Of a stretch of 64,000 nt of DNA, positions 2,163 to 62,512 are shown piece by piece. Source of the stretch: a virus. The translations under genes and the position numbers were made by a program. The DNA lies in the IMG/VR virus record IMGVR_UViG_3300025425_000012. One strand, given 5' to 3'. Below the pieces are notes generated by a model. The model worked only from the letters and a program-made list of their open reading frames with translations, was not told the DNA's origin and did no database searches. Each line of letters starts with the position of its first letter. Position 1 is the stretch's first letter.

Positions 2163-2943
2163 CTACTGCTGTTGCACGCTCATCATCTGTAAAAGCACTA
2201 CTAGCATATAGAGATTGAGTACTAGTACCCTCACTACGTGCTTGTCTCATAGCTGAGACTTTATTAGACGCAATAGACATAGTACCTGCCATAGCACCCT
2301 TACTAAACTGAATTGTGTTATGCTCCTGAAAACCATAAACACTTGATGCTGCGAAAGCATCAATGTCTGCACCCATAAAAGTGAATACCCAGTCTTTAGC
2401 TTCTGCTTTGGCGATCATCTGCTTAATATCAATACTTCCAAAAGTACTAGAAGCATTTTCATAGCCGTCAGTAAGAATATTAATAATAATAGAATCTCTA
2501 TCAGCTTTCTTAGTTTCAGCAAACAGATTATTTACAGTAAGCATAACGGAACCTATTGCATCATTTAGATTTGTCATACCAGCTGGATTATAATCTCTAC
2601 GAGTAATATGCTCTACTTCTTTAATGTTTTTACGAGTTACAATACTAATCACATTATTACCATCAAACTTAACAATAGATACAAAAGTCTTAATCTTTTG
2701 TGCTTTTGAATCCTTACGCTGGCTGTCTAAAAACTCATTACAGCTACTAATCGTAGCGTCTGTTGAGCCGTTCATTGAGGATGATTCATCTAGAATCATT
2801 ACTACATGCGATGTTTTCGTTCCTGCACGTTTTGGTTTAAAAGCCTCGGCAAGAGTAAGTGGTTTTGGTGCCTTTATTGCTCCTGCAAGTGCTTCACCAA
2901 TCAGTGACGATGTAACTGGTGCGTATGTTTTAATTCTTCTCAT
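2134..2943 (-). CDS. von Willebrand factor type A (vWA) domain protein
   Basis: Metal-ion-dependent adhesion site (MIDAS) motif VVMILDESSSMNGS (DxSxS), plus a downstream T and D..D consistent with the vWA fold. Confidence 0.55.
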   Translation of the reverse strand: MRRIKTYAPVTSSLIGEALAGAIKAPKPLTLAEAFKPKRAGTKTSHVVMILDESSSMNGSTDATISSCNEFLDSQRKDSKAQKIKTFVSIVKFDGNNVISIVTRKNIKEVEHITRRDYNPAGMTNLNDAIGSVMLTVNNLFAETKKADRDSIIINILTDGYENASSTFGSIDIKQMIAKAEAKDWVFTFMGADIDAFAASSVYGFQEHNTIQFSKGAMAGTMSIASNKVSAMRQARSEGTSTQSLYASSAFTDDERATAVGDDNDKDPV

Positions 2944-3017
2944 TTATTATTTCTCTTTTTCTGTGCTGTGTGTGATGCTATAATAACCTTGTTATAGCTC
3001 GGATATATTTATGGGTA

Positions 3018-3275
3018 TCACCCCAATTTATACAGCAAGTGACCAACTTCGTCAGTAACTCTTTGTTTAAACTCTGGAAAGGATATAGTATCTTCACTTT
3101 TACAAAATTGTAGATTAAGAGGATGCTCAACACCATCAATATATGTAAATAGGAAAATATCATCATTGGGGAAACAACGCATAGAAACATTGTATGCTAC
3201 TTTGTTTATTGTTATACGCATGACTCTCCAATAAAAATAGGCCCGTTCTGTTGCAAGGTGGAGCCCATACCCCAT
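3018..3275 (-). CDS. hypothetical protein
   Basis: 85-aa ORF on the coding strand of the minus block. Confidence 0.3.
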   Translation of the reverse strand: MGYGLHLATERAYFYWRVMRITINKVAYNVSMRCFPNDDIFLFTYIDGVEHPLNLQFCKSEDTISFPEFKQRVTDEVGHLLYKLG

Positions 3276-3721
3276 GTCGTTACGCTGCTAGAGCGTAACC
3301 CATAGGTGCACTATTTTTGTTTGCATCTATAAAGTTTCTTGCGGTTACAGTCGCTTGCGCACTGGCTTCTAGCTTACTCTTTGATACCTGTCGATCCTAT
3401 TTCGACCCCATCATCTACCTACTAAGTTCATTCTTTATCGTTACTAAGCGCTTAGCATGAATATAACGAGTTATCGTAGTAGGTAGGTGGTGGAGTCGCT
3501 GGGTACTGCCCCCAGGTCCAGAATATCTCCAATTCACATAATTGAAGCGATGATTTTATTATACTTCGTTTCTTAGTAGCTTTTCTAAATCTTTTTCATG
3601 TGGCTCATACTCTACCCATAGATCAGGACCAGAGATTTCCCCATGTTGTGGAATGTTACGAGCAGCTATTACACCTGATAAAAAGGCGTGTTTTAGCATA
3701 CGTGCAATTAGCAGTGTCATG

Positions 3722-4555
3722 TTAAGTACCTTTAGTTAAAAAATCGTTAATAGCGTCTACAATGTTATTAACATCACAAGCATATAAACCTGCTGAGTTA
3801 AAACCATTATACTCTACTACAGCTAACCCTTTATCTGTTTGAGCAATATCAATAGTATATACGTCGCCAGGATTATGTATATTAATACAATCATGAGCAA
3901 AGTCTAATACTTCTTGGTAAATTTCTCTACTAGACATTATAGTTTGCCATTGCTTATATATAGTATATTCGACAATCTTAGAATCTACTACTATTAGTCT
4001 CCACTCTATATTAGTGTTTTTTACAGAACTTACAACTACCTCAAAGTCTCTAGGTATCCACTCTTGTGCAAACACTCCTTCAATAAAGTAACTATATCGT
4101 TTAGTATCAAATACAGTACCAGCAAACTCTTTATTATCTGTATTAGGCTTAGCAAAAAAGAGCTCCCAGCCTTGTTGTTCTGCTATATTGTCTGCCTCTT
4201 CGGCCTTACAGATAATCATATCTGAGTTAAGATACTTATTACCTAGGGCTGCACTAACAACACTTTCTTTGACACCTGAATAATCCCACACAAGAGGTTC
4301 CGCAGTCATCTGCTTAGCTACTGCTCTAATATTTGTACTTCCGTACATAACAGCAGGGCTAACAACTTCTGGAAGTCCTCCAACAACTTCATGAGAAAAA
4401 GGTATAATGTCTAGTTCTAACCACGTATGATTAGTTTCTTTACATCTTTTTCTAATAGCTTCGGATACTTCACTACATCTATCTGCAAATAAGCCGCTAC
4501 TTTGAGTAATCCAAGTTACCATATTATCGACCTCCGCAGTAGATACAAGGATCAC
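3722..4555 (-). CDS. ATP-grasp fold protein (ligase-like)
   Basis: C-terminal half shows the ATP-grasp pattern: FAKPNTDNKEFAGTVF ... EWRLIVVDSKIV ... YTIDIAQTDKGLAVVEYNGFNSAGLY. Confidence 0.4.
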   Translation of the reverse strand: MILVSTAEVDNMVTWITQSSGLFADRCSEVSEAIRKRCKETNHTWLELDIIPFSHEVVGGLPEVVSPAVMYGSTNIRAVAKQMTAEPLVWDYSGVKESVVSAALGNKYLNSDMIICKAEEADNIAEQQGWELFFAKPNTDNKEFAGTVFDTKRYSYFIEGVFAQEWIPRDFEVVVSSVKNTNIEWRLIVVDSKIVEYTIYKQWQTIMSSREIYQEVLDFAHDCINIHNPGDVYTIDIAQTDKGLAVVEYNGFNSAGLYACDVNNIVDAINDFLTKGT

Positions 4556-7348: not shown

Positions 7349-7642
7349 TTATTTATTATATCGCTTTGCTTGTCTTGCTAAACGCTCGGCACGTTCTTTC
7401 TGCGCACGACGTCTATTTTGTTTAATCAACTGTTGTTCGCGTTTCTCAATGTTATCAACAAAGGCTGCTCGCGTCTTGCGCCAACGTCTTTCCCCTGCTT
7501 TCTTATCTAAACGCCTTGTTTCTCCTGCGGAAACAAAGTGTTGTTTACCTCTGAGCAAATTCAAATCGCCTTCTGTCTGAAGTTTTTTCTTCAAAACACG
7601 TAGGGCTTTTGAAATGTCATTATTCTTAACAAATATTTTCAT
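7349..7642 (-). CDS. rpsU: ribosomal protein bS21 homologue
   Basis: MKIFVKNNDISKALRVLKKKLQTEGDL...RRWRKTRAAF...KRYNK aligns with bacterial S21 ([28 protein letters not shown]...). A longer ORF up to the ATG at 7690 is possible, but the internal Met fits the S21 N-terminus. Confidence 0.75.
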   Translation of the reverse strand: MKIFVKNNDISKALRVLKKKLQTEGDLNLLRGKQHFVSAGETRRLDKKAGERRWRKTRAAFVDNIEKREQQLIKQNRRRAQKERAERLARQAKRYNK

Positions 7643-7719
7643 TCTTTTATAATACACATTATTTAAGATTTGTCTACTGTAAAATAACATACAGTAGTGT
7701 AGTGTGACCAGATAAATTC

Positions 7720-17047: not shown

Positions 17048-18115
17048 ATGGAATATTTTAACAAAACACAGACAGACTGGCGTATTTCTCAATGCTGTCA
17101 GTTTAATGATAAAGATTTGGCAAAACGCTATAATCTTGGTACTACTACTAAGACTTATGCTTTAAAAGACGGTGGTAAAGAGCGAGTACAACAAAAAGCT
17201 TTAGCTAACGTAGCTAAGCTAGAGGACATTATTACTAACTATTTTCCAACACAACCTCGTAACTTGCGTGCTTTTCGTATATCGTCTGAGCTATTTCCTT
17301 GTTATACTCTTGACTTTACTACTGATTGGTATAAAGAAATCTGGGAAGATCTTAGTGTTATACTGGCACGAACTGGTGAGCAAGCTAAAAAACACGAAAT
17401 CAGACTGAGTGTGCATCCAGGGCAGTTTACTGTTCTCGGATCAGACAAAGCTAATGTAGTAGAAAACTCAGTTGCAGACTTAGAATACCATGCACATTAT
17501 GGTAAGCTGATGAATATACCTGCCGAAGACTTTGTAATGAATATTCACTTACAAGGTTTGTATGGAGGTAAACATATTGATGGTATTAAACGCTTTGCTT
17601 CTAATTTTAGCTATTTATCAGACTATGCTCAGAAGTGTTTAGCAGTAGAAAACGAAGATAAGCCTAATGGTTATGACATTGAACATACTATAGAATTAGC
17701 ACAACGTATTCCTACACGATGCACTCTTGATACTCATCATTATGCTTGCCACCGTATGTTGCATACTGAAAAAGTTCATGAAAACGGTAAGATTGTAAAC
17801 CGTAAAATTCGTGATGTACAGCATATTACAGCTAATTCCGACTTTTTTAAAGAAGCAGTAAAAACTTGGAAAGGTAGACGACCTTTATTCCACAAGTCTC
17901 AGTCACATCATCCAGATAATTCAGAGTATTGGATGAAAGTCAACGCCCATAGTAACGTATTTTGGGACGAAGAACTTATGGCTAACCATGTACCTATGTT
18001 AGAATATGCAGACTTCGATATTGAAGCTAAACATAAAGAGATTGCTGTTGCAGGTTTTTATAGCTTTATTAAAGAAGAACAAAATATGAGCGGTGAAAAG
18101 ATTATATGTAAATGA
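17048..18115 (+). CDS. uvsE: UV damage endonuclease UvdE/UvsE
   Basis: FRISSELFPCYTLDF...EIRLSVHPGQFTVLGSDKANVVENSVADLEYHAHYGKLMNIPAEDFVMNIHLQGLYGGK...LAVENEDK...CTLDTHHY is co-linear with B. subtilis UvsE (YRFSSSIVP...LRTSFHPNQFTLFTSP...INIHIGGAYGNK...TLENDDKTYT...FDFHHF). Confidence 0.8.
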   Translation: MEYFNKTQTDWRISQCCQFNDKDLAKRYNLGTTTKTYALKDGGKERVQQKALANVAKLEDIITNYFPTQPRNLRAFRISSELFPCYTLDFTTDWYKEIWEDLSVILARTGEQAKKHEIRLSVHPGQFTVLGSDKANVVENSVADLEYHAHYGKLMNIPAEDFVMNIHLQGLYGGKHIDGIKRFASNFSYLSDYAQKCLAVENEDKPNGYDIEHTIELAQRIPTRCTLDTHHYACHRMLHTEKVHENGKIVNRKIRDVQHITANSDFFKEAVKTWKGRRPLFHKSQSHHPDNSEYWMKVNAHSNVFWDEELMANHVPMLEYADFDIEAKHKEIAVAGFYSFIKEEQNMSGEKIICK

Positions 18116-18837
18116 TAAATAAATACTTTTGTGAAGCAGTATCGTTATGCTCTCTAGCTTATGCTAAAAATAAAGTTATAGAAAGAGGACTATTTCATAA
18201 AGGTTACGTAGATATACATTTTATAGAAAAAAAACTATATAAAGGTTTTATAGCGTATAATCCTTCAGATAATAAGTGTTACTTAGCCCTAAGCGGCGTA
18301 CCTCCTGGAACTTTTCTACGATCTGGAGTACAATTATTAACTTGGAAGTTACAAAGCCATAACAATAGTAAAGTTTATAGCACTTTTTTATACCATGCAG
18401 ATAGCCTAAAAGATATACTAGATAGCTATATTGAGAAGTACCCTACTGCCTCATTTATGTACACAGGGCATTCTCTAGGCGCTGCTATATGTACCATTCT
18501 ATGTTTACACAAAGCTCCTACTATGTTAGTTACTTATGGGTCACCAAAAGTAGGAGATAAGCATTTTGTTAGAAACCTAGATAAGTTAAAAATAAATCAT
18601 TTCAGATTCGTAGCTTGTAATGATGATGTAACTACGCTACCTTTATGGTGTTATGGGTTAAAACATCATGGAGCTGAAATATACATTAATTTTTATGGAC
18701 ATATTAGAGATTCTACTAAGTTTCAAAAAAGTAAGGATAAGTTTAGAGCTAAGATCAGTATGAATAAGGCTCATTCTATATATAAAGCACATAATATAGA
18801 TAACTACTACTATAAAATACTCAAAGCATATAGATAG
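18112..18837 (+). CDS. class 3 lipase-like alpha/beta hydrolase
   Basis: Nucleophile elbow YTGHSLGAAICTIL (GHSLGxA). 241 aa. Confidence 0.5.
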   Translation: MINKYFCEAVSLCSLAYAKNKVIERGLFHKGYVDIHFIEKKLYKGFIAYNPSDNKCYLALSGVPPGTFLRSGVQLLTWKLQSHNNSKVYSTFLYHADSLKDILDSYIEKYPTASFMYTGHSLGAAICTILCLHKAPTMLVTYGSPKVGDKHFVRNLDKLKINHFRFVACNDDVTTLPLWCYGLKHHGAEIYINFYGHIRDSTKFQKSKDKFRAKISMNKAHSIYKAHNIDNYYYKILKAYR

Positions 18838-19220
18838 TTTTAGTATAAAACTGTAATGCTTTAAACTAAATATTTGGTAATCATAATAAAATAAAGTATA
18901 ATGGGGGTAAGAAATTACCCTCATTTTTTATGGAAAGAAGTAACTATGAATACATATAGAGCTATGAGTTGCTGCCCTACATGCAGCTATGAACACGAAG
19001 TTTGGTTCCACAAAGGGAAGATTGAACCCACAGCGGTATTAGAGTGTGAGCGTTGTTCTCAGATATACCCACCAGAGCACTTTATTATGAGTTTACTAGA
19101 ACTGCGAAAAGATGTTTCTATTTCTGCTATATTACTAGGGCGTTAGTTTTAATTCAAGTTGCTTATCGCTTATTTCAATGTTATATTAGTTTATACAACA
19201 AATTAAAAAAGGTTTCTATC

Positions 19221-25448: not shown

Positions 25449-25522
25449 GGGAGTGTAGTTCAATGGTAGAACATGGGTCTCCAAAACTTATGACGAGGGT
25501 TCGATTCCTTCCACTCCTGCCA
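25449..25522 (+). tRNA. tRNA-Trp (anticodon CCA)
   Basis: Acceptor GGGAGTG/CACTCCT (G1.U72), D GTTC-AATGGTA-GAAC, loop CTCCAAA, T GAGGG-TTCGATT-CCTTC, G-CCA. Confidence 0.65.
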
Positions 25523-26930: not shown

Positions 26931-27254
26931 GTATTTATTTTTAACTAGCTTAATTGCTTGTCTAGTGTTTGCATTTTGTAATGCTTTCACTTTTGAACTA
27001 ATCGGCATATGTATGTGCCTAAGTCTAATTACAGTGGCAGAATTTGTAGATAATGATTAAAGTAGAAGAAATCTTAGCAGCCCTAGAATACTATGTAGGT
27101 TTAGGTACCTATGAGAATATTCAATCTACAACACGATTGAGAACCTTACGAGCAGCCGTAGCACAAGATAGAGAGCTAGGCGTAGCAACAGCTAAAGCAT
27201 TGGGCTACACTGATATTAATTAACACTACCTACTAAAAGTTTTTAAAATTGTTC

Positions 27255-27632: not shown

Positions 27633-27707
27633 GCCTGTATAGCATTGTGGCAATGCAGCAGCCTTCAAAACTGACGTAAGTGGGTTCGACACCCTCTACA
27701 GGCACCA
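27633..27707 (+). tRNA. tRNA with anticodon TCA (reads UGA): putative opal-suppressor tRNA; amino-acid identity uncertain (Gly/Trp-like)
   Basis: Perfect 7-bp acceptor GCCTGTA/TACAGGC, D GCAT-TGTGGCA-ATGC, anticodon loop CTTCAAA (U33, A37), T GTGGG-TTCGACA-CCCTC, A-CCA. The anticodon stem is weak (3 bp: GCAGC/ACTGA). The anticodon arm is paralogous to the tRNA-Gly(UCC)-like gene at 28526. Confidence 0.45.
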
Positions 27708-27815
27708 ATTTTTAACCAAGGAGAACTTACTTATGTTGTGAGTATACGCGCCACCTTAATATATATAACAGTCTAACTATATCTACTGTTTAACATATAT
27801 TAAGGAAAAAAACAA

Positions 27816-28229
27816 ATGTCACTTAAACTAAAAATTAAATCTAAACATCTTAGCCTAGAAGCTAAAGTAATCCGTTTTGAAGAACGTAAATTGCTTAAAC
27901 AGCTACGCTCTAATATAGAGCATCATGTTAGTCAGGCTCATAACTCTGAGTATGACTATTTTAACGATCATAGCTATAGAAGCTACTACTCGTTAAATAA
28001 GCATAGACGTTATAATGTTAGAAATGAAAACAGAGCTACGTTTCTAGCTAGAGCATATCTAGCAGGTAAACCATATAGTTCTGTAGAGACATCGCGAAAA
28101 CACGACAAAGAATATACTTTTACTTATATCATCTTACCACGAGTTATCTCAATGGTTAAGAAATATAGACCAAAAGTAGAGTTTGATGTAGATACCTCAG
28201 CTGAGATTAAGGCTTGGGTACTTACATAA
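27816..28229 (+). CDS. hypothetical basic protein
   Basis: 137-aa ORF between tRNA clusters, RBS aaggaaaaaaacaaATG. Confidence 0.35.
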   Translation: MSLKLKIKSKHLSLEAKVIRFEERKLLKQLRSNIEHHVSQAHNSEYDYFNDHSYRSYYSLNKHRRYNVRNENRATFLARAYLAGKPYSSVETSRKHDKEYTFTYIILPRVISMVKKYRPKVEFDVDTSAEIKAWVLT

Positions 28230-28525
28230 AACTAAGGAGGGGGAGGATAAACATCGGCAGCGTGTGAAATAATCATGACGGATACTTCCCCCATAGCATT
28301 ACTAGCAGAGCGCGATTGAAATGCCTCGCTCTATAAATATCAGAAGCAGACCGCGTAGCGCCGCATGGCCAGATCGTAAAGATCAAGTAATGCACGATAG
28401 GCAGCGGCTATCAGCTTTAAATTGTAGAATATCCCCAATGGTCATTGCTGAGAGTTTGATCTAACTCGTAGATGCGACTATGCGATATCTACCTGCTAGA
28501 GGGTTTGATCTCCTTTAGTTAGATT

Positions 28526-28608
28526 GCGCGCATAACTTCGTGGAGATTGGTATCTTCAGCAGCCTTCCAAGCTGTGAGTAAGGAGTTCGATTCTCCATGC
28601 CCGCTCCA
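28526..28608 (+). tRNA. tRNA-Gly (anticodon TCC)-like with expanded D region
   Basis: 3' two-thirds (CAGCCTTCCAAGCTGT GAGTA AGGAGTTCGATTCTCCA TGCCCGC T CCA) closely parallels E. coli glyT. Acceptor GCGCGCA/TGCCCGC has one C.C mismatch. The D region is about 7 nt longer than canonical. Confidence 0.4.
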
Positions 28609-28610
28609 AT

Positions 28611-28685
28611 ATTGGTGTAGCTCAGTGGTAGAGCAGCGGATTCCAAACCCGCGTGTCGGGGGTTCGATTCCCTCCACCTTTGCCA
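28611..28685 (+). tRNA. tRNA-Trp (anticodon CCA), second copy, acceptor with two U.U mismatches
   Basis: D GCTC-AGTGGTA-GAGC, stem GCGGA/CCCGC, loop TTCCAAA, T GGGGG-TTCGATT-CCCTC, G-CCA. Acceptor ATTGGTG/CACCTTT pairs only 5 of 7. Confidence 0.4.
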
Positions 28686-31217: not shown

Positions 31218-32255
31218 ATGCACGACACTGTAGTATTTATTGGCAGGTTCCAGCCTTTACATTTGGGACACGAAGCTGTTATTCGCGCAGCTTTAGAAAA
31301 GGGTAAACAAGTTATTGTAGCCGTTGGCTCTAGCTTTGCTTCCCGCACGACGCGAAACCCCTTTACATTTGAAGAACGCAAGCATATGCTTGAAACCGTG
31401 TTTTGTGATGAACCACGGTTAAAAGTCGTGCCTATTGCGGACTATCCTTACGACGATAATAAATGGGTTAATGCTGTTCGCAAGCAAGTAGCTAAGCATA
31501 CTAAGCCTACAGACTCTATTGCTCTTATTGGCTATGCAAAAGATGAAACATCCTACTATTTAAACATCTTTCGTGATTGGGATTCTATTAATGTTCCGGG
31601 ACATGAAAAACTCAACGCGACAGATCTTAGAGTTGAGTTATTTAGTATTGTTCTTGAATGGGAACTTTATAATAACGAGCTGTTATGTAATGGTAAAACT
31701 CTATCCAGTAGGATGATATCAATACTAGATAAACTAGTTGTGAAACCAGAATTTGTACAACTATCTAAAGAGTATGCGCTTATCCAAACCTACAAAGAAG
31801 CTTGGTCTGTTGCACCTTATGAGCCTACTTTTCATACAGTAGATGCTCTTGTTGTTCAGTCTGGTCATGTTCTTCTTGTTAAACGTAAAGCTGCTCCTGG
31901 CATAGGGTTGTGGGCGCTTCCTGGAGGGTTTCTAAACCCTAAAGAAACTACAAAAGACGGAGCACTTCGTGAGCTTCGAGAAGAAACTAAAATTAAAGTA
32001 TCTCAGACTATCTTAGAAAGCTCAATCAAAGGCAAGCAAGTCTTTGATGAACCTAACCGCTCTACTCGCGGTCGAACAATTACTACTGCTTTTCACTTTC
32101 AACTATCTGATAAGTTTGATTTCCCTAAAGTTAAAGGTTCAGATGATGCAGAAAAAGCTAAATGGGTTCCTTTCGAGCGTATTCGTTCACAGGATATGTT
32201 TGAAGATCACTATCACATTATTGACTACTTTCTTAATATCGCAGGTGATGCATGA
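31218..32255 (+). CDS. natV: bifunctional NMN adenylyltransferase / Nudix ADP-ribose pyrophosphatase (NadM-Nudix, phage NatV type)
   Basis: N-terminal VVFIGRFQPLHLGHEAVI (HxGH nucleotidyltransferase). C-terminal Nudix box GGFLNPKETTKDGALRELREETKI. Confidence 0.8.
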   Translation: MHDTVVFIGRFQPLHLGHEAVIRAALEKGKQVIVAVGSSFASRTTRNPFTFEERKHMLETVFCDEPRLKVVPIADYPYDDNKWVNAVRKQVAKHTKPTDSIALIGYAKDETSYYLNIFRDWDSINVPGHEKLNATDLRVELFSIVLEWELYNNELLCNGKTLSSRMISILDKLVVKPEFVQLSKEYALIQTYKEAWSVAPYEPTFHTVDALVVQSGHVLLVKRKAAPGIGLWALPGGFLNPKETTKDGALRELREETKIKVSQTILESSIKGKQVFDEPNRSTRGRTITTAFHFQLSDKFDFPKVKGSDDAEKAKWVPFERIRSQDMFEDHYHIIDYFLNIAGDA

Positions 32256-32450
32256 AACGTAGAGTAATAACATATAAGTACAAGCCAGGCTGGTGGGGTA
32301 TTATGGATTATAAAACCTATGACACTACAGAAGCTAAGGTTGATGCTTTTATTAAAGTCTTTACTAAAACATTACCAAAATACTACCACGTAACAGTAAT
32401 AACTTTAGACGGATAGACCGTCGAACAGAACAGCAAAAGGAGTTTTTGCA

Positions 32451-33956
32451 ATGAAAAATATTCTATCAGTACTAACCGCTATCCTACGAGTTGATGGCTA
32501 TAAGCCTTCCCAATGGGTACAAACACCTACTAACACTACGGGAATCAGTTCTTATATTGAGTCCCGTGGCGGAGCAGCAAAAAGTGTCTTCTTCGGCCCA
32601 CAAGCCTTTATTAAAGAGTATCTACTAGTACCTATTACAGTAAGCGATGTTAAGTTTGCAAAAGCTGTATTTGCGATTTATGGCGCACCCTTCAATGAAG
32701 AAGGTTGGATGACTATTGTAAACGAGTATGGCGGCTTTCTACCTCTTGAGATTGAGGCAGTACCAGAAGGTACTTATATGGAGACACGCAACGTACAGGT
32801 ACAGGTTACTGCTACTGATGATCGTCTAGCATGGTTGACCTCGTATGTTGAAACCGCGCTTCTACGAGGTGTATGGTATCCTTCTACCGTTGCTAGTGAG
32901 TCAAGAGAATACAAAGTTATGTTGTTAAAAGGTCTGTATGCAACCTCTGATATTCCTATAGATGTTCTACGTGATGTAGTAGTAAAGTTCTCGCTGCATG
33001 ACTTTGGTGCTCGGGGCGCTTCTTCTTCAGAAACAGCTGTATTAGGTGGTATGTCACACCTTGTTAACTTCTGGGGAACAGATACTGTTGAAGGACTTAT
33101 CGGAGCGTATAGCTTCTATAATGCTGATATTACGAGTGCAGATGCTCCACCAGTCGGTAGGACTGTTCCTGCCTCTGAGCATAGTGCTATCACTTCTTGG
33201 GGCCGTGCTAATGAAGCTGCTGCTTTTGAAAATATGATTGATCAGTTTAGTGAGCCAGGTTCTATCTATGCTTGCGTTTCTGATAGTTTTGATATTTACA
33301 ACGCAACTTCAAATATCTGGGGAACTCAACTAAAAGATAAGGTAATTGCTTCTGGGGGTACCCTAGTTGTACGCCCTGACTCAGGTGATCCACTTACTAT
33401 GCCTATCAAAGTACTTGAAATGTTAGCTGAAAAGTTTGGCTATACTGTAAATAGCAAAGGGTATAAGGTACTTGCAGTACGTAAGAGCGATGGAAGCCCT
33501 ATTGTTAAAGTAATTCAGGGGGATGGTCTAGATAAGAAATCACTTCCTATTCTTATTGCCAATATCATAAGTGCTGGTTTTAGTCTTGAAAACATTGCTT
33601 TTGGTATGGGCGGTGGTCTACTTCAAAATGTTAATCGTGACACCTTGAAATATGCAATGAAAGCTTCTGCAATCCGTGTAGGAGAAGGTGACTGGGTAGG
33701 TTTCTCTAAAGACCCTGTTACTGATCCAGGTAAAAAGTCTAAAGAAGGACGCCTTGGCCTTATCTATACTTGCGGTATTGGTAGCTGTAGCTTTAAGACT
33801 GTACCTAAGCATATTGCTGACGAAAAAGGCAAAAATGTTATGCGAGTCGTATATAGAAACGGTAAGCTGCTAGTAGATGATAACTTTGAGACTGTTCGCG
33901 CGCGCGCAGAGGTTCAAGAGATTGAGTTTACTAACGAGCCTGTAGAAAGATACTAA
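32451..33956 (+). CDS. nadV: nicotinamide phosphoribosyltransferase (NAMPT, phage NadV type)
   Basis: 501 aa, full-length NAMPT family. Conserved DGYKPSQW, SVFFGPQAF, GARGASS, VRPDSGDP and IQGDGL segments. Confidence 0.85.
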   Translation: MKNILSVLTAILRVDGYKPSQWVQTPTNTTGISSYIESRGGAAKSVFFGPQAFIKEYLLVPITVSDVKFAKAVFAIYGAPFNEEGWMTIVNEYGGFLPLEIEAVPEGTYMETRNVQVQVTATDDRLAWLTSYVETALLRGVWYPSTVASESREYKVMLLKGLYATSDIPIDVLRDVVVKFSLHDFGARGASSSETAVLGGMSHLVNFWGTDTVEGLIGAYSFYNADITSADAPPVGRTVPASEHSAITSWGRANEAAAFENMIDQFSEPGSIYACVSDSFDIYNATSNIWGTQLKDKVIASGGTLVVRPDSGDPLTMPIKVLEMLAEKFGYTVNSKGYKVLAVRKSDGSPIVKVIQGDGLDKKSLPILIANIISAGFSLENIAFGMGGGLLQNVNRDTLKYAMKASAIRVGEGDWVGFSKDPVTDPGKKSKEGRLGLIYTCGIGSCSFKTVPKHIADEKGKNVMRVVYRNGKLLVDDNFETVRARAEVQEIEFTNEPVERY

Positions 33957-37129: not shown

Positions 37130-37500
37130 CACAATGACCTTGAAACCTATGTGCAATAATAACTACAAAGGTGACAGTCTGGAGAGTGACAGACATTACA
37201 GAAGACCCTGCATACGGTCCAGGGTCTATAAACATAAAATACAGGTTACTCTGTAGGACTCTGAGCCGCGCTAGATATGGCCCGAACGTAAGGTTCAAGA
37301 AGTATCAGGCTAGGGAACAGCTAGCCAACTAATTAAGCAGGGTTCAATTCCCTCGCTGATACCATACAGAAGACCCTGTATCAACCTGAGGGTCGTTAAA
37401 TATGAAGAGAAGGTAACTTCTCAGGTCTATGCTAGCACCGTGTTCCGAGGTCATACTCATAAGGAGAGAGTATCGGAAAGCTATGGAGTAGATAGCAAAC
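37130..37500 (+). ncRNA. ORF-free structured region with duplicated ACAGAAGACCCTG hairpin motif and a 62-nt tRNA-like minidomain (37303-37364, ends GGGTTCAATTCCC-TCGCTGATA-CCA)
   Basis: Two copies of acagaagaccctg...cagggtc / ...gagggtc hairpins at about 37195 and 37365. T-loop and CCA end present without a full cloverleaf. Confidence 0.3.
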
Positions 37501-38880: not shown

Positions 38881-38952
38881 ATTAACTTAGTCCAATGGTT
38901 AGGACGTCTGATCCCACATCAGAAGTTAAGAGTTCGAGTCTCTTAGTTTTTA
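38881..38952 (+). tRNA. tRNA-like pseudo-element (CCA-anticodon-like loop TCCCACA; U.U mismatches in acceptor; followed by T-run)
   Basis: D GTCC-AATGGTTA-GGAC, stem TCTGA/TCAGA, T AAGAG-TTCGAGT-CTCTT. Acceptor ATTAACT/AGTTTTT pairs only 5 of 7. Positions 33 and 37 are both C, which is non-canonical. Confidence 0.3.
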
Positions 38953-39454: not shown

Positions 39455-39528
39455 ACCTTGTGGACCCTTTTGATATGGGTATGGGCGCGAGTTCAATGTT
39501 CTAGGTTCGAATCCTGGACAAGGTACCA
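39455..39528 (+). tRNA. tRNA-like pseudo-element with degenerate anticodon arm
   Basis: Perfect acceptor ACCTTGT/ACAAGGT, D ACCC/GGGT, T CTAGG-TTCGAAT-CCTGG, A-CCA. The anticodon region TGGGCGCGAGTTCAATG has no stem. Confidence 0.3.
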
Positions 39529-43180: not shown

Positions 43181-43256
43181 GGGGTCGCATGTTCCAAGGG
43201 GGCGACGGCGCTTTGCAAGCACTGTGTGAAGGGTTCGATTCCCTTCGATTCCACCA
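43181..43256 (+). tRNA. tRNA-Ala (anticodon TGC) with G3:U70 identity pair; weak D-stem
   Basis: 76 nt with canonical numbering. Acceptor GGGGTCG/CGATTCC (G3.U70, G4.U69), stem GGCGC/GCACT, loop TTTGCAA, T AAGGG-TTCGATT-CCCTT, A-CCA. The D-stem TGTT/GCGA is poor. Confidence 0.45.
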
Positions 43257-51970: not shown

Positions 51971-52055
51971 GGGTAGATAAAGCTAGGGGTTCTAGCACGC
52001 GGACTGTAAATCCGTTCTTTGACCGGGAGAGGTTCGAGTCCTCATCTGCCCACCA
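51971..52055 (+). tRNA. tRNA-Tyr (anticodon GTA)
   Basis: Acceptor GGGTAGA/TCTGCCC, stem GCGGA/TCCGT, loop CTGTAAA, long variable arm, T AGAGG-TTCGAGT-CCTCA, A-CCA. 85 nt. Confidence 0.6.
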
Positions 52056-61834: not shown

Positions 61835-62047
61835 TTGGAGAAAGTAATGATTTTAGTAATTACGCACACCTCGCCAAAAACTATCTACGATCATAGAGGT
61901 AGACTAGAAGAAGAAAAAGGTGATATATATGTATCTCATGGTGTAGATATACACACAGGAAAAAATGTAGTATTGCCTTGTGATCTCTGGAAATATTTTA
62001 GTGTTAACTGCTTTCACCAGGATGGTGAATGGTATCTTAAAGGATGA
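61835..62047 (+). CDS. hypothetical protein
   Basis: 70-aa ORF. Confidence 0.3.
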   Translation: MEKVMILVITHTSPKTIYDHRGRLEEEKGDIYVSHGVDIHTGKNVVLPCDLWKYFSVNCFHQDGEWYLKG

Positions 62048-62050
62048 GTA

Positions 62051-62512
62051 ATGAGACAACTATTTTTAGACTGTGATGGGGTACTAGCAGACTTTGATAA
62101 AGGTTTTGAAGACCTTTTCGGGTGGAAACAGGACAGGACTAACCCTCGTGTTAGCCAAAAAGATATGTGGTATAAGATTAGAACTACTAACAAGTTCTTT
62201 GAGAACCTGGATCTGTTACCTGATGCACGCGAACTATATGAAGAAGTAAAGCACCTTCGTCCTATTATTCTTACAGGCTGTCCTTTTGGTGATTGGGCAC
62301 CTGTGCATAAGATGAAATGGCGAGATAAGCACTTTCCAGGAGTCCCTATGATTACTTGTATGGCTAAAGATAAGGTAGACTACGCGCAAGTAAATGATGT
62401 TCTTATTGATGACTATAGTAAGCATAGAGAAACTTGGCAGAACGGCGGTGGCATCTTTATCCACCATAAGAATACCAAAGATAGCCTTCAACAACTAAGT
62501 AATATCTGGTGA
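62051..62512 (+). CDS. HAD-superfamily 5'(3')-deoxyribonucleotidase-like protein
   Basis: MRQLFLDCDGVLADFDKGFEDLFG is the classic DxDGVLAD motif I of NT5C-type nucleotidases. Confidence 0.5.
   Translation: MRQLFLDCDGVLADFDKGFEDLFGWKQDRTNPRVSQKDMWYKIRTTNKFFENLDLLPDARELYEEVKHLRPIILTGCPFGDWAPVHKMKWRDKHFPGVPMITCMAKDKVDYAQVNDVLIDDYSKHRETWQNGGGIFIHHKNTKDSLQQLSNIW

Follow-up and report, generated by a model that had tools for sequence, protein, structure and literature searches.

A phage tRNA with anticodon UCA followed by a leader ORF that holds the matching stop codon

Suppressor tRNAs encoded by phages have so far been interpreted mainly as tools, or forerunners, of genetic-code change. In stop-codon-recoded phages (crAss-like, Lak, Agate, Jade and others; Ivanova 2014; Borges et al., bioRxiv 10.1101/2021.08.26.457843) the phage carries a tRNA whose anticodon pairs with a stop codon, UCA for UGA or CUA for UAG, while its early genes use the standard code. 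Some standard-code phages also carry such tRNAs. The locus described here resembles these cases in its tRNA. However, no recoding was seen in the 83 kb of this phage that could be read, nor in its complete relative DSS3_MAL1, and the tRNA is physically coupled to a leader ORF with the cognate stop and to a conserved protein gene. No such arrangement turned up in our full-text literature searches or in the passages of Borges et al. that we examined, and the cassette is apparently undescribed.

Several regulatory systems share individual elements with this locus. In leader-peptide attenuation by ribosome arrest (ermC, cat/cmlA, secM-secA, mifM-yidC2, tnaC) a short upstream ORF is followed by a hairpin that sequesters the Shine-Dalgarno sequence (SD) of the downstream gene, and the arrest site may involve proline at or next to a stop codon, as in TnaC and in C-terminal Pro-Pro tagging. 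In the mechanism proposed below, the arrest site is reached only after a stop codon has been read through by a dedicated suppressor tRNA encoded just upstream. The signal would therefore be suppressor activity against release factor, not an antibiotic, tryptophan or secretion status. In prfB (RF2) an early in-frame UGA likewise acts as a kinetic gauge of termination against an alternative decoding event and sets the level of a translation-related product, but prfB uses a +1 frameshift and senses RF2. Here the alternative event would be cognate decoding by a suppressor tRNA, the output is a separate gene, and either UAG or UGA is used depending on the tRNA. Amino-acid operon attenuators and T-box leaders also read out the state of a particular tRNA. 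They sense host tRNAs at sense codons or by direct RNA-RNA binding and mostly control transcription termination, whereas a stop codon would restrict the signal to the phage's own tRNA. Synthetic suppressor-tRNA circuits (for example PMC7969014 and PMC13276491) use an in-frame stop codon and a cognate suppressor tRNA as an engineered translational gate. The present cassette appears to be a natural and widespread counterpart with an added arrest-and-hairpin relay.

The tRNA gene and the genetic code of the phage

We analyzed a stretch of phage DNA of 64,000 nucleotides (the window). An earlier note had reported a UCA-anticodon tRNA in a standard-code genome, and this observation is confirmed. 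ARAGORN calls a 75-nt tRNA at exactly 27633-27707 (+) with anticodon tca. Rfam RF00005 scores it 48.5 bits against a gathering score of 29. This is the low end for the window and lower than most relatives, but similar to several relatives with CUA anticodons, which score 50.9-52.1 bits. The gene has a perfect 7-bp acceptor stem (GCCTGTA/TACAGGC), a 4-bp D stem (GCAT/ATGC), the anticodon loop CUUCAAA with U33 and A37, A73 and an encoded CCA. The note had described the D and T arms as canonical. The T stem is not fully canonical, since GTGGG/CCCTC has a U50.U64 mismatch, and position 14 is U instead of A. The anticodon stem, whose weakness the note had given as a caveat, has only three Watson-Crick pairs, flanked by G27.A43 and C31.A39. 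This stem is a conserved family trait and not decay: the same arrangement occurs in several CUA relatives and in a second UCA tRNA on an unrelated metagenome contig (L243), which has the same anticodon loop and shows compensatory changes in all four stems. U14 also recurs in intact CUA relatives.

The use of the standard code is confirmed for the sequence that could be seen. A greedy set of 124 genes in the window ends in TAA 75, TGA 25 and TAG 24 times. Extensions after TGA are no longer than after the other stops, and no conserved ORF is split by TGA. Another 19 kb of flanks behaves the same, with TGA ending 9 of 38 genes. Megablast and blastn searches with the region and with the tRNA found only generic tRNA matches among cultured phages. 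An exact 15-mer of the anticodon arm gave 79 loci in IMG/VR, none of which aligned to the window by blastn, and only one hit lay in a tRNA (an unrelated 93-nt UCA tRNA). The tRNA-to-gene cassette is identical in ten contigs of the same phage population from several samples.

The cassette and its relatives

The tRNA is the first part of a conserved cassette. The features of this locus in the window are:

27220..27249 (+), possible sigma-70-like promoter upstream of tRNA-Leu, tRNA-Pro, tRNA(UCA), the leader and the protein gene
27633..27707 (+), tRNA with anticodon UCA
27718..27723 (+), SD AAGGAG of the leader ORF, 9 nt before its ATG
27733..27759 (+), leader mini-ORF, with the in-frame UGA at 27739-27741, the Pro-Pro codons at 27751-27756 and the final TAA at 27757-27759
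27754..27805 (+), predicted hairpin that sequesters the SD of the downstream gene; the 5' arm 27754-27764 (second Pro codon, TAA and 5 nt) pairs with 27795-27805 and an inner helix pairs 27767-27772 with 27785-27790
27802..27806 (+), SD AAGGA of the 137-aa gene, inside the 3' arm of the hairpin
27816..28229 (+), gene for a conserved 137-aa basic protein, predicted to be all-helical, of unknown function

The promoter is weakly supported, as it rests on a consensus scan only and does not exceed the shuffle expectation. No terminator-like site lies in between, which suggests co-transcription.

The leader starts 26 nt downstream of the tRNA and reads ATG TTG TGA GTA TAC GCG CCA CCT TAA, giving M-L-[UGA]-V-Y-A-P-P-stop. 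In general, the leaders consist of an SD, a start codon, 0-10 codons, an in-frame stop, about three codons, Pro-Pro and a stop. Two surveys each found 50 distinct TAG leaders. An SD-like motif precedes the start in every one of the 51 distinct short leaders of the first survey, and three codons separate the stop from Pro-Pro in 61 of 94 leaders. Among distinct cassettes, 74 pair a CUA tRNA with a TAG leader and two, the window and L243, pair a UCA tRNA with a TGA leader. No mixed cases were found (Fisher p = 3.5e-4, uncorrected for phylogeny). In 23 distinct cassettes with a TAG leader ARAGORN found no suppressor tRNA in the flank available, and two CUA cassettes lack a recognizable leader. 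In a long-leader subfamily a conserved 83-aa domain, for which no family match was found, begins right after M-S-x-TAG, in several members without any Met or alternative start, so TAG must be decoded there.

The match between anticodon and leader stop was probably acquired twice. With the anticodon loop masked, our tRNA is closest to the syntenic CUA tRNA of locus L283 (52/68), whose leader ML[TAG]IYIPP resembles ours, ML[TGA]VYAPP. The tRNA of L243 is closest to a CUA-type tRNA in L133 (53/68), while our tRNA and that of L243 share 47/68. In the protein tree the smallest clade holding both covers 91 of 114 leaves. Only two UCA/TGA cassettes were found, however, short sequences give a poorly resolved phylogeny, and the two UCA tRNAs share an identical 13-nt stretch (A29-U41). 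One origin followed by transfer cannot be excluded.

RNAfold of 27725-27825 gives -19.4 kcal/mol with z = -3.06. In 94 of 94 distinct leaders the partner of the SD lies -3 to +15 nt from the second Pro codon, and the arm sequences differ between relatives while pairing is kept. A stricter criterion, with all but at most one SD base paired in the MFE, was fulfilled by only 44 of 94 leaders. The Pro-Pro codons (CCN CCN) double as anti-SD sequence, so part of their conservation may act at the RNA level, although they are in frame in essentially all cases.

The 137-aa protein has 822 homologues, none with a Pfam domain, and 2220 clusters at 50% identity. An AlphaFold2 model (pLDDT 90.3) shows four long helices. 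No match was found in Pfam, PHROGs, NCBIfam, PADLOC or PDB. All invariant residues of the family (MSxELKIKSKHL...HRRxDVRNENRATFLARA) are present. In IMG/VR the nearest upstream tRNA is CUA in 64 of the 76 loci that have upstream sequence, plus 4 with odd CUA loops, and the same synteny holds in JGI and ENA metagenomes. It also holds in two cultured phages, roseophage DSS3_MAL1 of Ruegeria pomeroyi DSS-3, annotated with 'tRNA-Pyl' directly upstream, and cyanophage BUCT-ZZ01 of Synechococcus elongatus PCC 7942. In the window the tRNA ends 108 nt before the ATG of the gene, and the family mode is 104-126 nt. The CUA tRNA family shows strong cloverleaf covariation: 98.6% of cells are paired, 13 of 16 pairs changed on both sides, and 0 of 500 shuffles were as high. 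A covariance model of this family scores our tRNA 64.2 bits, second of all window tRNAs. It is not discriminating, because the window's tRNA-Lys(UUU) scores 66.0 bits. This hints at a Lys-like ancestry but does not prove orthology.

Proposed mechanism and alternative explanations

Based on these comparisons we propose, with fairly good confidence, that the gene at 27633-27707 encodes a functional opal-suppressor tRNA and that it is the UGA-reading version of a widespread phage cassette which normally uses an amber suppressor. The evidence is comparative throughout, and the match between anticodon and leader stop supports decoding of UGA in vivo only indirectly. Ribosomes would start on the leader (M-L). 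If a release factor wins at UGA, they leave 15 nt before the hairpin, which stays closed, and the downstream gene is poorly translated. If the phage tRNA decodes the UGA, the ribosome goes on for five codons to Pro-Pro-TAA. Such a C-terminal motif impairs termination in E. coli (PMC2998420), and the phage also encodes a tmRNA. The paused ribosome would sit on the anti-SD arm, whereby the SD is freed and the 137-aa protein is made. The cassette would thus report the suppressor activity of the phage's own tRNA and couple it to production of this protein. We suspect that the protein is a regulator or partner of suppression, or of the ribosome, but its function is unknown.

In a broader reading, which we consider only slightly more likely than not, large tRNA-rich phages of at least two host phyla (roseophages, a cyanophage and many uncultured relatives) carry a suppression-sensing cassette of this kind, in which anticodon and leader stop co-evolve (CUA/UAG to UCA/UGA, probably twice) and the protein governs or exploits stop-codon read-through in the infected cell. 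If so, this would explain why many standard-code phages keep suppressor tRNAs. The large protein family would then be a strong candidate for a new factor acting on termination, tRNA or the ribosome.

The earlier note had proposed a glyT-type origin by paralogy with a tRNA-Gly(UCC)-like element at 28526, which would imply a change of C36 to A and insertion of glycine at UGA. This is not supported and appears very improbable. The anticodon arms share 17 of 19 bases, CAGCAGCCTTC[A/C]AA[A/G]CTG, but the similarity is confined to this arm. The global alignment scores 16, against 33 for the CUA tRNA of L283 with the loop masked and, over the full length, 32 for the CUA tRNA of locus L196 and 28 for L243. 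A73 and C3-G70 do not fit the bacterial Gly identity set, which typically comprises U73, G1-C72, C2-G71, G3-C70, C35 and C36. The 28526 element is itself an aberrant tRNA-like sequence, which ARAGORN does not call and which scores 30.9 bits on the tRNA-Sec model against a gathering score of 47. By position, neighbors and sequence our tRNA is instead the counterpart of amber-suppressor tRNAs in related phages. It shares a UCA anticodon, or probable UGA reading, with the laboratory opal suppressors glyT(SuUGA) and trpT Su9 of E. coli and with the natural tRNA-Trp(UCA) of Mycoplasma and mitochondria. Its amino-acid identity is unresolved: A73 fits neither bacterial Trp (G73) nor Gly or Cys (U73), although C35 and A36 of the Trp set are present. 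Two tRNA-Trp(CCA) genes of the phage, at 25449 and 28611, have G73. A selenocysteine tRNA can practically be ruled out. The 'SeC' label of ARAGORN only reflects the anticodon, the 75-nt gene has a 7-bp acceptor, a 5-nt variable loop and A73, the general tRNA model is the best Rfam match, and no selA, selB or selD gene turned up among the window proteins scanned. Decay of an amber suppressor, with the TGA of the leader as an unrelated mutation, is also very unlikely. The low Rfam score, U14 and the mismatches in the T and anticodon stems could be taken as damage, and the identical copies within the population carry no signal. On the other hand, matching double changes in anticodon and leader are seen twice, the UCA tRNA of L243 differs by compensatory changes in every stem, and the leader, hairpin and protein gene are all intact.

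Phage suppressor tRNAs are strongly linked to recoding, which concentrates in structural and lysis genes, and some standard-code relatives of recoded phages already carry TGA suppressors (bioRxiv 10.1101/2021.08.26.457843). A genome-wide or late-gene reading of TGA as an amino acid, with an incidental leader, nevertheless seems improbable from the stop-codon usage described above, within the limits of 83 kb, as about 65 kb of the roughly 148-kb genome, probably including the structural genes, was not seen. A search with the DSS3_MAL1 capsid protein listed 120 closer relatives but not the capsid of this phage. DSS3_MAL1 itself carries the CUA cassette, yet it is densely coding under the standard code, with intact long structural genes and TAG in use as a stop. 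The suppressor in this family is therefore not tied to genome-wide recoding. Gene integrity in this GC-rich genome was judged from the deposited annotation only, because greedy ORF calling picks up spurious antisense ORFs. The cognate leader stop also explains retention of the tRNA without any recoding. An additional role in trans, by low-level read-through of UGA at the ends of phage genes or of host genes (with tmRNA clearing the products), is possible but remains tentative, and it would not be an alternative to the cis mechanism; the cassette would merely meter this activity. Any charged suppressor will also read other UGA stops, and 20% of window genes end in TGA. In the long-leader subfamily the 83-aa domain is made only by read-through, and loci L022, L023, L024 and L026 carry a separate tRNA(UCA) far from the cassette in addition to the CUA cassette, so opal suppressors exist in these phages for other reasons. 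No trans target was shown to be conserved, however, and long or conserved extensions after TGA are not enriched in the window. The one in-frame gene pair, 61835-62047 (ending in TGA) and 62051-62512, is within chance expectation.

The tRNA gene and the genetic code of the phage

ARAGORN found 29 tRNA genes and a tmRNA in the window. All the tRNA genes are on the + strand between 22.4 and 53.9 kb. One of them, with the anticodon tca, is located at 27633-27707 and was scored by the general tRNA model of Rfam at 48.5 bits (gathering score 29). Inspection of the sequence showed a perfect 7-bp acceptor stem, a 4-bp D stem, the anticodon loop CUUCAAA with U33 and A37, a 5-nt variable loop, A73 and an encoded CCA. 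Three details differ from the earlier note, which had described a canonical D and T arm and a weak 3-bp anticodon stem: position 14 is U, the T stem has a U50.U64 mismatch, and the three Watson-Crick pairs of the anticodon stem are flanked by G27.A43 and C31.A39. The gene is not a selenocysteine tRNA; the corresponding ARAGORN label only reflects the anticodon.

The window is part of a metagenomic phage of roughly 145-148 kb (ENA contigs k141_23333 and k141_220876 as well as several JGI and Logan contigs). All copies are at least 99.4% identical, and the tRNA is identical in all of them. The NAMPT of this phage is closest, at about 54%, to those of the 147-150 kb roseophages of the DSS3P8 group. 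Besides UvdE and sugar-modifying enzymes, the phage encodes the following elements:

31218-33956 (+), an NAD+ salvage pair as in many large phages, comprising an NMNAT/Nudix bifunctional protein and NAMPT
7349-7690 (-), an ORF whose product carries a ribosomal protein S21 domain (PF01165, precomputed hit), another translation-related gene in this phage
3189-3591 (-), an alpha-type permuted (two-piece) tmRNA with the tag peptide ANKNSAPMGYALAA
38819-39281 (+), a GOLLD RNA (RF02032, 167 bits, gathering score 150) in the middle of the tRNA array, with a tRNA-Trp(CCA) embedded at 38881-38952

Under the standard code the window is 77% coding with a simple greedy set of 124 genes, which end in TAA (75), TGA (25) and TAG (24). 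In-frame extensions after TGA are as short as after the other stops, and no pair of long ORFs is joined by a TGA beyond what is seen for TAA and TAG. A 70-aa ORF at 61835-62047 (+) ends in TGA and is in frame with the next gene (NT5C-like, 62051-62512, +), with only one codon between them. Read-through would fuse the two, but this is within chance expectation. Nineteen further kilobases of flank behave in the same way. The statement of the earlier note that the genome uses the standard code is therefore right for the 83 kb that can be seen, which do not include the remaining ~65 kb that probably hold the structural genes.

A conserved cassette of tRNA, leader ORF and protein gene

The ORF just downstream of the tRNA (27816-28229) codes for a protein of 137 aa without a Pfam or PHROG match. 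Nevertheless, it belongs to a very large family, with 822 hits in the 90%-clustered database and 2220 clusters at 50% identity in a profile search. The motifs MSxELKIKSKHL and HRRxDVRNENRATFLARA are strikingly conserved. The homologues are preceded by a suppressor-type tRNA. In IMG/VR, the nearest upstream tRNA is tRNA(CUA) in 64 of the 76 loci that have upstream sequence, and four more have CUA in an odd loop. The same holds in JGI and ENA metagenomes and in two cultured phages. In roseophage DSS3_MAL1 the record annotates a 'tRNA-Pyl' 113 nt upstream of the homologue, whereas in Synechococcus elongatus phage BUCT-ZZ01 the tRNA is unannotated but was found by ARAGORN. The tRNA studied here occupies the same position and ends 108 nt before the gene (family mode 104-126 nt).

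The CUA tRNAs form a well-behaved tRNA family, in which C34, U35, A36 and A37 are invariant. Cloverleaf covariation is strong: 98.6% of cells are paired, 13 of 16 pairs are changed on both sides, and none of 500 shuffles (0 of 500) scored as high. Cassette tRNAs with non-standard anticodon loops, for example CCCUAAC with C33 or an 8-nt loop read by ARAGORN as 'ccta', were observed in the related loci L127, L133, L156, L198, L232 and L277; they are still followed by TAG leaders. The relatives L022, L023, L024 and L026 carry, in addition to the CUA cassette, a second suppressor-type tRNA (anticodon UCA, 78 nt) elsewhere in the array, at 1796-1873, 2924-3001, 1796-1873 and 3082-3159, respectively. 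Opal suppressors therefore also occur away from the cassette.

In the relatives, the spacer between tRNA and protein gene holds a leader ORF with zero to ten codons, an in-frame TAG, most often three further codons, two proline codons and usually a stop. Examples, each ending in a stop, are MKEFFA[TAG]ITHPP, MKS[TAG]IRPPP in DSS3_MAL1 and MGGDAS[TAG]INLKPP in BUCT-ZZ01. In 23 cassettes with a TAG leader, no suppressor tRNA was detected in the short flanks available. In locus L134 a skipping-rope RNA (RF02924, 43.7 bits, 2266-2383) lies between the tRNA(CUA) and the leader. Several other loci (spacers of L129, L153, L163, L186, L191, L194, L142 and L145) share a conserved insert of ~130 nt at the same place (..GAGTAACCGAGACAAC..CTGGTAAAACCGATAAA..CCTTCTCAGG..), and L125 and L126 have a tRNA-like 3' half there.

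In one subfamily (L014, L141, L210, L216, L237, L242, L244, L247, L265, L270, L274 and L281), M-S-x-TAG is followed by a conserved 83-aa domain (..FHFNKKHLED..IPMWV.KAKGQT.YV.HV.CN..WSTKE.PDNPSTKG..) that again ends in Pro-Pro-stop and has no family match. Conservation starts at the first codon after TAG. Several members have no Met or alternative start there, so the TAG must be decoded, and in these members the domain can be translated only by amber read-through.

In the window, the corresponding parts of the cassette are:

27633-27707 (+), tRNA with anticodon UCA
27733-27759, leader ORF, AAGGAG-N9-ATG TTG TGA GTA TAC GCG CCA CCT TAA, giving ML[TGA]VYAPP and a stop
27754-27764 and 27795-27805, predicted hairpin arms, the second of which contains the SD AAGGA of the protein gene
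27816-28229, gene for the 137-aa protein

The in-frame stop of this leader is TGA, which is cognate to the UCA anticodon. The metagenome scan yielded one more such case, contig Ga0075464_10199624 (L243), with a tRNA(UCA) at 141-215, an intervening tRNA-Ala, the leader ATG TGA GTA TGT AAG CCA CCT TAG and then the protein gene. Fisher's exact test over all distinct cassettes gave p = 3.5e-4, not corrected for relatedness.

Table. tRNA anticodon and leader stop over all distinct cassettes.
Anticodon CUA, leader stop TAG: 74 distinct cassettes
Anticodon UCA, leader stop TGA: 2 distinct cassettes
Anticodon CUA, leader stop TGA: 0 distinct cassettes
Anticodon UCA, leader stop TAG: 0 distinct cassettes

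To find out whether the two opal cassettes arose once or twice, we compared the tRNAs with the anticodon loop masked. The tRNA of the window is closest to the CUA tRNA of locus L283 (52/68). Both share the acceptor stem start GCCT and an almost identical D arm with U14, and the leader of L283, ML[TAG]IYIPP followed by a stop, also resembles that of the window. The tRNA of L243 is closest to a CUA-type tRNA in L133 (53/68), whereas the two UCA tRNAs share only 47/68. In a tree of the protein, the smallest clade containing both covers 91 of 114 sequences. This favours two independent, coordinated changes from CUA/TAG to UCA/TGA. The sequences are short, however, and the two UCA tRNAs share an identical 13-nt stretch (A29-U41) including C31.A39, so that a single origin with later exchange is not excluded. 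In either case, the UCA tRNAs differ by compensatory changes in all four stems (for example C28-G42 against G28-C42 and U13-A22 against C13-G22), which speaks for selection on a working tRNA. The 27.43 and 31.39 mismatches and a non-A14 are also common among the CUA members. The weak anticodon stem, which the earlier note had raised as a caveat, is therefore a family trait.

Predicted hairpin and proposed mechanism

RNAfold of 27725-27825 paired 27754-27764 (the second Pro codon, TAA and five bases) with 27795-27805 and predicted an additional inner helix. The energy is -19.4 kcal/mol, with z = -3.06 against shuffles. Across 94 distinct leaders, at least part of the SD of the protein gene is paired in the MFE structure in all 94, and its partner always lies -3 to +15 nt from the second Pro codon. 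The stricter criterion, all but one SD base paired, is fulfilled in only 44 of 94. The arm sequences differ between relatives but stay complementary, as in CCTTAATATAT/ATATATTAAGG in the window, CCTAAATTG/CAATTTAGG in L129 and CTTCTTGTTTAAA/TTTAAACAAGGAG in L167.

Based on this geometry, which fits an arrest-type attenuator, we propose the following mechanism. A ribosome released at the first stop, 15 nt before the second Pro codon, should leave the hairpin closed. A ribosome that has read through and pauses at Pro-Pro-stop sits on the anti-SD arm and frees the SD. Decoding of the UGA in vivo, pausing at Pro-Pro-stop and the direction of regulation are inferred from comparative data only. DSS3_MAL1 and BUCT-ZZ01 also encode a tmRNA near their suppressor cassette, and a link with ribosomes paused at Pro-Pro-stop is conceivable. 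The output would be the 137-aa protein, which was modeled with confidence by AlphaFold2 (pLDDT 90.3) as four long helices and has no specific structural or sequence relative. Its basic, strongly conserved surface and its inferred regulation suggest a partner in the translation apparatus, but this is speculation.

The individual parts, a phage suppressor tRNA, an arrest leader and an SD-sequestering hairpin, are of known kinds. Their combination and the co-evolving pair of anticodon and stop appear to be new: full-text searches, in a literature collection that is incomplete, returned papers on recoded phages, on engineered suppressor circuits and on arrest peptides, but none describing a natural suppressor-tRNA/leader/protein cassette.

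Recoding and the origin of the tRNA

There are gut phages in which suppressor tRNAs accompany recoded late genes (bioRxiv 10.1101/2021.08.26.457843). The complete relative DSS3_MAL1, however, carries the CUA cassette and is densely annotated under the standard code, its long structural genes are intact and it uses TAG as a stop. In this family the suppressor is therefore not a mark of genome-wide recoding. Two loci of DSS3_MAL1 are possible trans targets of the amber suppressor. Its peptidyl-tRNA hydrolase gene ends in TAG and is in frame with the next CDS (18106-18555 / 18571-19056), and MAL1_00011 (3809-4108) ends in TAG and is followed by 104 open codons in an unannotated gap. The genome is G+C-rich, though, so long extensions are expected by chance. 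The glyT-type origin suggested in the earlier note, based on similarity to a tRNA-Gly(UCC)-like gene at 28526, fails with respect to identity elements (A73, C3-G70), overall similarity and synteny. Of the ordinary tRNAs in the window, the family model scored tRNA-Lys(UUU) highest, which hints at a Lys-like ancestry for the amber suppressors (CUU to CUA); the UCA version has lost U35.

The element at 28526-28608 (+) is itself an aberrant tRNA-like sequence with a UCC anticodon, U73 and CCA, a 6-bp D stem and extra bases after the acceptor stem. It was not called by ARAGORN and matches only the tRNA-Sec model, with 30.9 bits, below threshold. It is preceded by a G+C-richer, non-coding stretch of 300 nt (28230-28525). 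Three tRNA-Trp(CCA) genes are present in this phage (25449-25522, 28611-28685 and 38881-38952), of which the one at 28611 has two U.U mismatches in its acceptor stem. The covariance model of the suppressor family also gave weak tRNA-like matches (13-20 bits), not called by ARAGORN, at 51971-52055, 43183-43256, 53891-53962, 39464-39528 and 37304-37364, which may be degenerate tRNA genes or tRNA-like elements within the array.
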